A stretch of DNA of 64,000 bases. It comes from Escherichia coli. GTDB taxonomy: Bacteria; Pseudomonadota; Gammaproteobacteria; Enterobacterales; Enterobacteriaceae. The stretch lies in the NCBI RefSeq assembly GCF_022846255.1, contig NZ_AP025682.1; one strand, 5' to 3'. Of the stretch, positions 1-63,057 are shown piece by piece. How positions within the stretch are numbered: the first letter of the stretch is position 1; each line of letters begins with the position of its first letter. The notes beneath the pieces are model-generated. The model was not told the DNA's origin and searched no databases. It was given only the letters and a program-made list of their open reading frames with translations. The position numbers and the translations under genes are program-made.

Positions 1-1173
1 TTGTCCCCCTTGCAGATAAGCGTTCGCCAGGTTGAGCTGCAACACCGGATTGGTGCGCAAATCGCGGGCATTTTTCAGGCGATTGATAGCGTCATTGGCT
101 TTGTTTTGCCCAAGATCGATATCGGTAGCCAGATCGAGATACCATGCGTTGCCAGGTTCTGCCGCCAGTAACGGTTGCAGCGTTTTACGCGCCTCGTCGT
201 ATTTATTGGCTTCCATCGCCTGTAAAGCACGACCATATTGCGCCGCTCGTTGCTGACGAACGTTTCCTTTCGCCCATTCATCCAGCAAATCACTGGTGAG
301 TTGGTTACGCCCTGAATTGTACATCCCCAGTGTGCGCACTTTTGCCAGATAGAAATCTTCTGACGATTGCACCACTATCGGGCGCATCTGATTGGCACGG
401 TTACGGGCATCAGCCAGACGGCTTTCCGGTAGTGGGTGAGTGAGCAGAATTTCTGGCGGGCGCGAAGAGTAACGCGCCTGATCGAGTAATTTTTCGAGGA
501 AGGTCGGCATCGCCTGCGGATCGAATCCCGAGCGTTGCAGCACCTGAATACCAATGCGGTCCGCTTCCTGTTCATTTTGCTGGGTGAAACTGATCATCCC
601 CTGGCGCGTTCCCGCCAGTGTACCGGTCAGCGCCGCCATCCCCGCCTGCGGACTGGCCATCGCCAGTAAAATAGAACCTAACGCGCCGACCCAGGTCAGC
701 GGCGCGCTGCGCTGCTGATCTTCCATCGCTCGCGCCAGGTGACGTTGGGTGACGTGGGAGATTTCGTGCGCCATAACTGAAGCCAGTTGACTTTCGTTAT
801 CGGAATAACGGAACAGGGCAGAGTGCAGCACCACGTTGCCGCCAAAGAAAGCAAAGGCGTTAATTTCGTCGTTGTTGATCAGAAAGAAATGAAACGGTGT
901 CTTAACCGAATTGGCATGCGAAACCAGACGCATTCCTAGCGAATTAATGTATTGCGTTAACAGCGGATCATTAATTAACGGCGCGCTGCCGCGTAACTGG
1001 CGGACATAATAGTCGCCCATCTGCATTTCCTGACCAATGGAAAGTGTGCTTCCTGCGGAGGTTCCCATATCCGGCAAGGTGTCTGCGCTGTCGGCAAACG
1101 CCGGGGCTACCTGACCAATGGTCATAGCAGCAATGAGGGTTGCAACCAGGTTTTTTTTCAACTGCCTGAACAT
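1..1173 (-). CDS. bepA: BepA (YfgC) periplasmic M48 zinc metalloprotease with C-terminal TPR domain; N-terminal ~391 codons present, 3' end runs beyond window start
   Basis: Reverse-strand translation from ATG near 1173 gives signal peptide [27 protein letters not shown] and HEISH zinc motif; frame stays open to position 1. Confidence 0.85.
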
Positions 1174-1385
1174 AACCTCTATCCTGTATTTCTGGAGATA
1201 GTCATTTGACCGATACTGTGAAATATCGTTCCCACCGCGCCGCCTTTGAGTGTAACGGCGAAGATTAGCCCACTCAAATGACTTTTCAGTTTCCTGAATC
1301 CGTCATAAAAAGCGAAGTCTTTTTTGTGACATTTCGATACAATTGCGGATCGCAATCCCGCTCTTGAGGTTCAGGGAAGGTCTGT

Positions 1386-2447
1386 ATGCTCGAAATGTTG
1401 ATGCAATGGTATCGCCGCCGTTTTAGCGACCCGGAAGCGATTGCCTTGCTGGTTATTTTGGTTGCTGGTTTTGGCATTATCTTTTTCTTTAGCGGCCTAC
1501 TCGCGCCGTTGCTGGTGGCTATTGTGCTGGCCTATTTACTGGAATGGCCGACTGTCCGCCTGCAGTCTATTGGCTGTTCCCGCCCTTGGGCGACATCTAT
1601 CGTGCTGATCCTGTTTGTGGGCATCCTGCTACTGATGGCGTTCGTGGTACTGCCTATCGCCTGGCAGCAGGGCATCTACTTAATCCGCGATATGCCAGGG
1701 ATGCTTAATAAACTTTCTGATTTTGCTGCCACGTTACCGCGCCGGTATCCGGCATTAATGGATGCGGGGATTATTGATGCAATGGCTGAAAATATGCGTA
1801 GCCGGATGCTGACCATGGGCGATTCGGTGGTGAAAATTTCCCTCGCCTCGTTGGTCGGTTTGCTGACCATTGCCGTCTATCTGGTGCTGGTGCCATTGAT
1901 GGTCTTCTTCCTGCTGAAAGACAAAGAGCAGATGCTGAACGCCGTTCGCCGGGTGCTGCCGCGCAACCGTGGACTGGCAGGACAGGTGTGGAAGGAGATG
2001 AATCAACAAATCACCAACTATATCCGCGGCAAAGTGCTGGAGATGATCGTGGTAGGGATCGCCACCTGGCTGGGGTTCTTGCTCTTTGGGCTGAACTATT
2101 CGCTGCTGCTGGCGGTGCTGGTCGGCTTCTCGGTACTTATTCCGTACATTGGCGCATTTGTGGTGACCATTCCGGTGGTTGGCGTGGCGCTATTCCAGTT
2201 TGGTGCTGGCACGGAATTCTGGAGCTGCTTCGCGGTGTATCTGATTATTCAGGCGCTGGACGGCAACCTGTTAGTACCGGTGTTGTTTTCCGAAGCGGTT
2301 AACCTGCATCCTCTGGTGATTATTTTATCGGTGGTGATCTTCGGTGGTTTGTGGGGATTCTGGGGCGTATTCTTCGCTATTCCATTGGCGACGCTGATCA
2401 AAGCCGTGATTCACGCCTGGCCTGATGGGCAAATCGCGCAAGACTGA
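1386..2447 (+). CDS. perM: AI-2E/PerM-family inner membrane transporter (353 aa)
   Basis: ORF track 1386..2447; strongly hydrophobic multi-TM protein; divergent from bepA as in E. coli. Confidence 0.85.
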   Translation: MLEMLMQWYRRRFSDPEAIALLVILVAGFGIIFFFSGLLAPLLVAIVLAYLLEWPTVRLQSIGCSRPWATSIVLILFVGILLLMAFVVLPIAWQQGIYLIRDMPGMLNKLSDFAATLPRRYPALMDAGIIDAMAENMRSRMLTMGDSVVKISLASLVGLLTIAVYLVLVPLMVFFLLKDKEQMLNAVRRVLPRNRGLAGQVWKEMNQQITNYIRGKVLEMIVVGIATWLGFLLFGLNYSLLLAVLVGFSVLIPYIGAFVVTIPVVGVALFQFGAGTEFWSCFAVYLIIQALDGNLLVPVLFSEAVNLHPLVIILSVVIFGGLWGFWGVFFAIPLATLIKAVIHAWPDGQIAQD

Positions 2448-2545
2448 CCTTCAGCGAAAAAATTTGAAACGAGTGTTGCAGGGCAGTGAGACGATTTGAG
2501 ATGTGCTGGCCGCAAGCGCAGCCAGCACGGAATGGAGCAAAGTAA

Positions 2546-3016
2546 TCAGGCGTGTTCTTTCAGCCAGTTCAGCACAACGTCGTGGTGATTGCTGGTTTTG
2601 AAATCGTCAAAAACATGTTCGATTTTGCCATCAGCGTCAATCAGGAAGCTGATGCGATGAATACCATTGTAGGTTTTGCCCATGAAGGACTTTTCACCCC
2701 AGACGCCGAATTGTTCGCACACCTGGTGGTCCTCATCAGACAGGAGCGTAAAGTTAAGCAGCTCTTTTTCCGCAAAACGGGAGAGTTTTTCGGGTTTATC
2801 GGTGCTGATACCCAGCACATCAACGCCCGCTTTTTTCAACTCATCCATGTTATCGCGTAAGCCGCAGGCCTGTACGGTACAGCCGGGGGTCATGGCTTTC
2901 GGGTAGAAATAAACCAGAACACGCTGTCCCTGGAAGTCGGTCAAATTAACTTGTTCTCCGTCTTGATCCGGCAAGCTAAATTTCGGTGCGATATCACCGG
3001 CTTTCAGTGGATTCAT
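2546..3016 (-). CDS. bcp: thiol peroxidase Bcp (peroxiredoxin, 156 aa)
   Basis: ORF track; peroxidatic cysteine motif KAMTPGCTVQACG. Confidence 0.95.
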   Translation of the reverse strand: MNPLKAGDIAPKFSLPDQDGEQVNLTDFQGQRVLVYFYPKAMTPGCTVQACGLRDNMDELKKAGVDVLGISTDKPEKLSRFAEKELLNFTLLSDEDHQVCEQFGVWGEKSFMGKTYNGIHRISFLIDADGKIEHVFDDFKTSNHHDVVLNWLKEHA

Positions 3017-49465: not shown

Positions 49466-49744
49466 CGGTGGTGACCTTAATATTTGCGATCAAATAATTG
49501 CAGATAAATGGGATCATATATCCCGATTTGATAGACACAAAGGAATCATTAAGTCCGAATATTACTCATGTGATGTCACTGAAAATGATTGCGCGCTGAC
49601 GTAACGCTTGAGGTGCTGCATAAAGCAGCGACTAAATTGAGATTTTCCTGAATTAGTGAGCTGATCCGCAGCAATATTTTGTTTATCCTGTATTTTCAGA
49701 GGGAATGGAGTGTAACGCTCTGTATTAACAAGGAGAGCATTAAA

Positions 49745-55552: not shown

Positions 55553-56012
<460 letters not shown>

Positions 56013-61038: not shown

Positions 61039-61800
61039 TTACCGCCACATGGCGTGTTTATCGCGATAGCAATCGACCCACATCGCCGTCGCGCCACAAA
61101 CGGCAACGGGCATAATGAACAGATTAAGCAGCGGGATCATCGTAAACAGGCTGGTTAAAGCACCAAACTGCATATTGGTGATTTTGCGTGTGCGCAGGGC
61201 GGTGCGCATCTCTTTAAACGGCACTTTGTGGTTATCGAAGGGGTAATCACAATACTGGATGGCTAACATCCAGGCGCTAAACAGGAACCACAGTACCGGC
61301 GCGACGGTTTGCCCAATGCCAGGGATGAAGTAAAGAATTAGCAATACAATTGCGCGCGGCAGATACCAGGCAAATTTTTGCCATTCGCGTTTCATGATTC
61401 GCGGCACATCTTTCATGATACCGAAAATTCCGGTATCTGGCGGTGTAGCGCCAGTCAGTCTTGCTTCCAGTTGTTCAGCCAATAAACCGTTGAACGGAGC
61501 GGCAATCCAGTTAGCAATCGTTGAAAAGAAATAGCCAAATACTAACAGCACAGAGATGACAGCCAGGGGCCACAACAGATAGCTCAGCCATTGTAACCAG
61601 TCCGGAACATAACTCATGAGAGTCGGGATCCAGACATCGAGTTGCGTAAAGAGCCACCAGAATGCGCCCCCCATCAACAAAATATTGACCAGCAGCGGTA
61701 AAATAACGAAACGCCGAATCCCAGGTTGCGAGACGAGCTTCCAGCCTTGCGCAAAATAGTAAAAACCGCTGCGTGGGGCAGATGTGAATGATGAAACCAT
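61039..61800 (-). CDS. cysZ: sulfate transporter CysZ (253 aa)
   Basis: ORF track; polytopic membrane protein. Confidence 0.9.
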
Positions 61801-62029
61801 AATCAGGATGAGCTCCTTTTGACCAATCCCAGGAAAATTCTGCGTATTTTACCGGGTAATTGCGCAATGGACAGTTAGGATATGTTCGAAAAAACAGCAA
61901 AAAGCACGATTTCATCTATCTTTGTGCTGTGAAAGTTAATAGTGCACTTGCACTTGAGGTAATCGGCAAATACTCTTAGTGAGTAAATGTTTGCCGTGGT
62001 GGCAAGGTGTTAGAACAACAGAGAATATA

Positions 62030-63028
62030 ATGATGCAGGATTTGCGTCTGATATTAATCATTGTTGGCGCGATCGCCATAATCGCTTTACTGGTACATGG
62101 TTTCTGGACCAGCCGTAAAGAACGATCTTCTATGTTCCGCGATCGGCCATTAAAACGAATGAAGTCAAAACGTGACGACGATTCTTATGACGAGGATGTC
62201 GAAGATGATGAGGGCGTTGGTGAGGTTCGTGTTCACCGCGTGAATCATGCCCCGGCTAACGCCCAGGAGCATGAGGCTGCTCGTCCGTCGCCGCAACACC
62301 AGTACCAACCGCCTTATGCGTCTGCGCAGCCGCGTCAACCGGTCCAGCAGCCGCCTGAAGCGCAGGTACCGCCGCAACATGCTCCGCGTCCAACGCAGCC
62401 GGTGCAGCAACCCGTGCAGCAGCCTGCCTATCAGCCGCAGCCTGAACAGCCGTTGCAGCAGCCAGTTTCGCCACAGGTCGCGTCAGCGCCGCAGCCAGTG
62501 CATTCAGCACCGCAACCGGCACAACAGGCTTTTCAGCCTGCAGAACCCGTAGCGGCACCACAGCCTGAGCCTGTAGCGGAACCGGCTCCAGTTACGGATA
62601 AACCGAAGCGCAAAGAAGCGGTGATTATCATGAACGTCGCGGCGCATCACGGTAGCGAGTTAAACGGTGAACTGCTTCTTAACAGCATTCAACAAGCGGG
62701 CTTCATTTTTGGCGATATGAACATTTACCATCGTCATCTTAGCCCGGATGGCAGCGGCCCGGCGTTATTCAGCCTGGCGAATATGGTGAAACCGGGAACC
62801 TTTGATCCTGAAATGAAGGATTTCACTACTCCGGGTGTCACTATCTTTATGCAGGTACCGTCTTACGGTGACGAGCTGCAGAACTTTAAGCTGATGCTGC
62901 AATCTGCGCAGCATATTGCCGATGAAGTGGGCGGTGTAGTGCTTGACGATCAGCGCCGTATGATGACTCCGCAGAAATTGCGCGAGTACCAGGACATCAT
63001 CCGCGAAGTCAAAGACGCCAACGCCTGA
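62030..63028 (+). CDS. zipA: cell division protein ZipA (332 aa here) with N-terminal TM anchor and P/Q-rich linker
   Basis: Start at [26 protein letters not shown] inside ORF-track ORF 61979..63028. Confidence 0.9.
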
Positions 63029-63057
63029 TACACTTAAGGCAAATTAACTCCTCTTCG

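Follow-up and report, generated by a model that had tools for sequence, protein, structure and literature searches.

Does the length of ZipA encoded in the analysed window (a 64-kb stretch of Escherichia coli DNA, positions 1-64000) represent a peculiarity of one strain or ordinary variation of the species? An earlier note had counted 332 aa from the start MMQDLR against a length of 328 aa given for K-12, and had placed the difference at 62250-62600, in a low-complexity linker composed of PVQQP and QPxxQP repeats. The length given for K-12 is correct, since zipA of K-12 MG1655 (b2412, NC_000913.3 2530247-2531233) is 987 bp long and encodes 328 aa. The pairwise alignment that the note had proposed was run; lengths and sequences differ, and the gap falls inside the range given in the note (Table 1).

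Comparison with known families and with K-12 demonstrated that the window gene product is ZipA by every criterion testable on its sequence: (i) the gene order cysZ-zipA-ligA reproduces the K-12 synteny, (ii) the TIGR02205 septum_zipA equivalog profile is matched over its whole length (positions 1-284) with 416.3 bits, the cut-off being 119.65, (iii) the Pfam domain ZipA_C (PF04354) is matched by aa 198-321 with 156.8 bits (cut-off 23), and (iv) the protein has an N-terminal anchor, whose hydrophobic stretch is read directly from the sequence, a charged region, and a P/Q linker. Residues 1-119 are identical to K-12 and the first difference is at residue 120; aa 190-332 are identical to the K-12 C-terminal structures 1F47 and 1F7W. 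Given this identity of the binding domain to that of K-12, the window ZipA would be expected to bind the FtsZ C-terminal peptide and to be essential for division.

In the list of open reading frames, the zipA frame opens upstream at GTG 61979, which gives 349 aa. The MMQDLR start corresponds to ATG 62030, which is the RefSeq zipA start in the four other E. coli records compared; the 332 coding codons thus occupy 62030..63025, and the stop codon ends at 63028. The 101-aa open reading frames found inside the linker on both strands were set aside as incidental to the CAG/CCG-rich coding sequence; RefSeq annotates none of them. An Rfam scan of the entire window (1-64000) at gathering thresholds reported no RNA family, hence no RNA element overlaps the indel site.

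Table 1. Positions of zipA, its neighbours, and the linker features in the window
Feature	Position	Strand	Description
cysZ	61039..61800	-	upstream neighbour of zipA
zipA CDS	62030..63028	+	332 aa and stop; between cysZ and ligA; from the list of open reading frames and RefSeq annotation
P/Q-rich domain	62285..62596	+	aa 86-189 (K-12 aa 86-185); from composition, limits from PMC6904479
Extra unit GTGCAGCAACCC	62402..62413	+	V125 Q126 Q127 P128; absent from K-12; from DNA alignment, codon view
Second, kept unit GTGCAGCAGCCT	62414..62425	+	V129 Q130 Q131 P132; 10 of 12 positions shared with the first unit
Thr189 codon ACG	62594..62596	+	ATG (Met185 in K-12 numbering) in K-12 and four other E. coli alleles compared
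ligA	starts at about 63099	+	downstream neighbour of zipA

The linker has the composition and the repeats that the earlier note had attributed to it. The P/Q domain contains 31 Pro and 26 Gln among 104 residues, that is, 55% P+Q (30% P and 25% Q, vs 4% and 5% elsewhere in ZipA), with PVQQP occurring three times in addition to several QPxxQP units. A repeat search showed that the domain is built of short degenerate direct repeats. Tandem Repeats Finder called no array in 62000-63050, because the site offers only about 2.6 imperfect 12-nt units; the linker repeats were resolved instead by a direct-repeat search combined with a codon-level view. According to PMC6904479, with reference to Ohashi et al. 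2002, the Pro/Gln-rich residues 86-185 of K-12 ZipA are intrinsically unstructured and form a flexible tether that links the membrane anchor to the FtsZ-binding domain.

The entire length difference between the window ZipA and K-12 ZipA is one 12-nt in-frame indel. Both the protein and the DNA alignments, as well as comparison with the full-length K-12 chain in PDB 9iue, contain a single gap of 4 aa (12 nt). Codons 123-134 of the window (62396-62431) read CAG CCG GTG CAG CAA CCC GTG CAG CAG CCT GCC TAT, whereas K-12 has CAG CCG GTG CAG CAG CCT GCC TAT at the same site, encoding QPVQQPAY with one unit. The two units of the window differ from each other by two synonymous changes, CAA/CAG and CCC/CCT. 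The 8-nt direct repeat GTGCAGCA, which bounds the indel, occurs twice (62402-62409 and 62414-62421), so that the placement of the indel is ambiguous by up to 8 nt; its register may lie anywhere over 62402-62421, and all 12-nt frames with a start at 62402-62410 are equivalent.

Length is not the sole difference in the linker, and in this respect the reading of the earlier note had to be refined: the length difference stands, and four linker substitutions accompany it. The zipA DNA of the window is 97.6% identical to that of K-12 (999 columns, 12 gaps), with 12 nucleotide substitutions besides the indel, of which four alter the protein. Compared with K-12 ZipA (b2412, NP_416907.1; PDB 9iue, and 1F46/1F47/1F7W for the C-terminal domain), the window protein has the identical anchor, charged domain, and sequence from aa 190 onward, but carries four additional residues (one PVQQ unit) and the residues R120, T122, S152, and T189 in place of H, A, P (P148 in K-12), and M (M185), respectively. 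The protein-level differences, including the indel, are thus confined to the P/Q domain.

The substitution at position 189 is located at the junction of the linker and the globular domain. Thr189 replaces K-12 Met185, with which the classic 185-328 FtsZ-binding-domain constructs begin. In the related enterobacteria, the equivalent position is occupied by M, V, or A. Of 5426 complete E. coli genomes, 251 contain a 50-mer diagnostic for Thr189. The zipA gene nearest to that of the window among complete genomes differs from it by one base, in the Thr189 codon. The same length allele is represented in RefSeq by WP_001305210.1 (332 aa; in strains such as FHI_NMBU_03 and SCU-485), whose gene shows a single-nucleotide difference in 999 nt from that of the window and which has Met189 where the window has Thr189, the sole difference between the two proteins.

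The frequencies of both length forms were determined in complete E. coli genomes, 5425 of which (out of 5426) match zipA; the RefSeq zipA annotation underlies these matches. In an even-step sample of 60 full-length matches, 25 genes have a length of 999 bp and 33 a length of 987 bp, with single genes of 1011 bp and 888 bp. The alleles were then counted by 50-mers centred on each junction, for which a 28-nt exact-word seed is possible only on the own allele. The two-unit junction was found in 2026 of the 5426 genomes (37%), including O157:H7 strains, an O18:H1 strain, and UM146, and the one-unit junction of K-12 in 3044 (56%), including K-12 derivatives and an O103:H2 strain. About 356 genomes were matched by neither 50-mer, presumably due to single-nucleotide polymorphisms in the seed or to other alleles. 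The split between two-unit and one-unit carriers may correspond to that between phylogroups B2/E and A/B1.

These counts bear on the origin of the difference in the data themselves. Short repeats can mislead assembly, and each of two further length alleles is known from one genome, yet an error of sequencing or assembly in this repetitive, GC-rich stretch has next to no probability as an explanation: the two-unit junction recurs in 2026 independent complete genomes, the exact window protein (P0002, named ZipA [Escherichia coli]) is found on at least 1000 contigs of the protein collection, and the indel is in frame. Such an error as the source of the 332-aa allele is refuted by the allele frequency. 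The 332-aa allele is already catalogued and ordinary, and there is nothing new in the feature. We consider it very probable that the window zipA is one of the two main length variants of this gene in natural E. coli, which interconvert by a 12-nt in-frame indel, likely through slippage or short-homology recombination; the two-unit form is probably the older one, and no functional effect of the difference is expected.

The two further length alleles lie at other repeats of the P/Q domain, each in a single complete genome. The 336-aa allele (1011 bp) of E. coli 2017-02-2CC (L002:301-1311) has gained 12 nt encoding an extra QPQP from CAGCCT units and contains a perfect extra CAGCCTCAGCCT. The 295-aa allele (888 bp) of E. 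coli EM10-18-28 (L003:301-1188) has lost 37 aa through a 111-nt deletion between CAGCAGCC repeats. These singletons could be assembly errors and are presented here as illustrations rather than as established polymorphisms. If the 295-aa allele is real, a third of the linker would be dispensable in a natural isolate.

Slippage, which the earlier note had proposed as the source of the difference, agrees with the structure of the site. The indel comprises one imperfect tandem unit, out of about 2.6 units of period 12, and is bounded by the 8-nt direct repeats, while the +12-nt and -111-nt alleles are likewise indels at repeats of the same tract. Short degenerate repeats with the pattern CAR-CCN-GTG-CAG encode the P/Q domain. 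We propose that the one-unit form (QPVQ-QPA, K-12 type) and the two-unit form (62396-62428) interconvert by 12-nt in-frame insertion or deletion between the GTGCAGCA repeats, the likely mechanism being replication slippage or short-homology recombination.

To place the two forms in a wider context, we analyzed the zipA genes of related species. A scan with a degenerate pattern, in which each species was represented by one genome, yielded 26 enterobacterial zipA loci, a set outside of which fall the E. coli representative and E. fergusonii. The stretch of P/Q sequence between conserved flanking motifs varies from 72 to 106 aa in these 26 species. ZipA proteins of E. albertii, Salmonella, Citrobacter, Enterobacter, and Lelliottia share the architecture of the window protein, in that the anchor, the charged region, and the C-terminal domain are conserved and the P/Q linker consists of QPVQQP-like units. 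Unlike these conserved parts, the linker drifts freely in sequence and length among other Enterobacteriaceae, the whole protein being 317-350 aa long.

The direction of the change was judged from the four non-coli Escherichia loci only, which carry 1, 2, or 3 copies at the indel site. QPVQQP is present in 2-3 copies in E. albertii (L006) and in the divergent Escherichia lineages L007 and L027; the latter two resemble the window in having CAG-CAA/CAA in the first copy and CAG-CAG in the last one. Among the outgroups recovered, Escherichia sp. MOD1-EC7003 (L028) is the closest, at 94% nucleotide identity; it has the one-unit form QPGQQPPY, with CAA in its single unit rather than the CAG of K-12. 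Deletion of any one 12-nt frame from the window sequence reproduces K-12 exactly; the opposite change, from K-12 to the window, would need a duplication and two further substitutions. The two synonymous differences between the units, together with the CAA-first and CAG-last arrays of distant Escherichia, make a deletion in K-12 more likely than an insertion here. Thus, from the compared sequences we favour, with some reserve, the two-unit form as the older one and the K-12 form as derived by deletion; it is probably K-12, and not the window strain, that has changed.

The opposite course, in which the extra unit arose by slippage duplication in the lineage leading to the window strain and the 328-aa form of K-12 is ancestral, seems rather unlikely. 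It would accord with the one-unit state of L028, which has the K-12 length in this segment, and with the expansion known in this domain from the perfect extra CAGCCTCAGCCT of the 336-aa allele. However, with 2 of 12 positions differing between the units, such a duplication must either be old or have been succeeded by two synonymous changes, and the more distant Escherichia are already multi-copy, with the order of CAA and CAG seen in the window preserved in L007 and L027. The CAA retained in L028 points to a separate deletion, and the single unit of this lineage may accordingly be suggested to have originated independently of that in K-12. Because of this one-unit form, simple outgroup comparison does not settle the direction, and recurrent indels at the site must be assumed; the site is clearly unstable in a recurrent manner.

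Returning to the preferred reading, in which K-12 carries a deletion of one unit, we considered what the difference may mean for the protein. Four additional residues in a disordered tether of about 100 residues would not be expected to have a functional effect, and the best-supported interpretation, as the earlier note had supposed, is that the 332-aa and 328-aa linkers represent neutral standing variation. Neutrality is favoured because each allele is frequent (37% and 56%), linkers of close relatives measure anything between 72 and 106 aa, and the domain is described as an unstructured flexible tether. A cryo-EM/SAXS study (PMC6904479) argues that the PQ domain may be less extended than a free tether, and an effect of linker length thus retains some plausibility. 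A literature search for natural ZipA linker length alleles or for effects of linker length found no study of either.

It is highly improbable, in our estimation, that the length alleles differ in function, for instance in how far from the membrane the FtsZ-binding domain can reach, and that selection maintains them in different lineages. The persistence of two alleles at high frequency is compatible with such selection, as is the fact that R120H, T122A, and S152P separate the K-12 allele from the four other E. coli alleles compared; but deep population structure alone would bring both alleles to high frequency, no effect of length is reported in the literature found, and the four residues constitute about 4% of a disordered domain whose length differs by over 30 residues between close relatives that share the division machinery. 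We assign a slightly smaller chance still to the possibility that the 328-aa and 332-aa alleles, taken with their linked substitutions, are not equivalent, have slightly different reaches, and are favoured in different lineages.

Several features of the window outside zipA were also recorded. The segment 53000-57000 (cysA, cysM, yfeK, and pdxK) has a best identity of 97.6% to any of the 5426 complete E. coli genomes and matches SCU-485, the closest genome elsewhere in 40000-64000, at 96.1% identity; the kilobases beside this patch mostly differ by 0.1-0.7%. Judged by its sequence, the patch seems to be a divergent haplotype acquired by recombination, with no representative among the complete genomes. 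Import from a cryptic Escherichia clade was considered and rejected, as the patch shows no greater similarity to either of the overlapping clade loci, L007 (92%) and L028 (95%). At the other end of the window (1-3016), bcp (2546..3016, minus strand) adjoins yfgO/perM (1386..2447, plus strand) and bepA, and the hyf-focB hydrogenase-4 operon of about 13 kb that separates bcp and yfgO/perM in K-12 is absent from the window. This arrangement is common to the closest genomes among the matches listed, with identity of up to 99.7%. Also in comparison with K-12, the window lacks the cryptic prophage CPZ-55 (located between eutB and eutA), yfeW (PBP4B), murR, and yfeS, the corresponding sites being at about 37897-37919, 47015-47056, 49555-49603, and 55555-55561. 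The absences of yfeW, murR, and yfeS are shared with SCU-485, the closest complete genome.

The allele of the window shows that the length of K-12 ZipA is not the standard of the species: the 332-aa form, which is possibly the older one, accounts for about 37% of complete E. coli genomes. Caution is thus required in transferring K-12 numbering, such as M185 or the boundaries of 185-328 constructs, to other strains, since positions after residue 124 shift by four. The two alleles are a modest natural example of the weak constraint on the length of the P/Q tether of ZipA.
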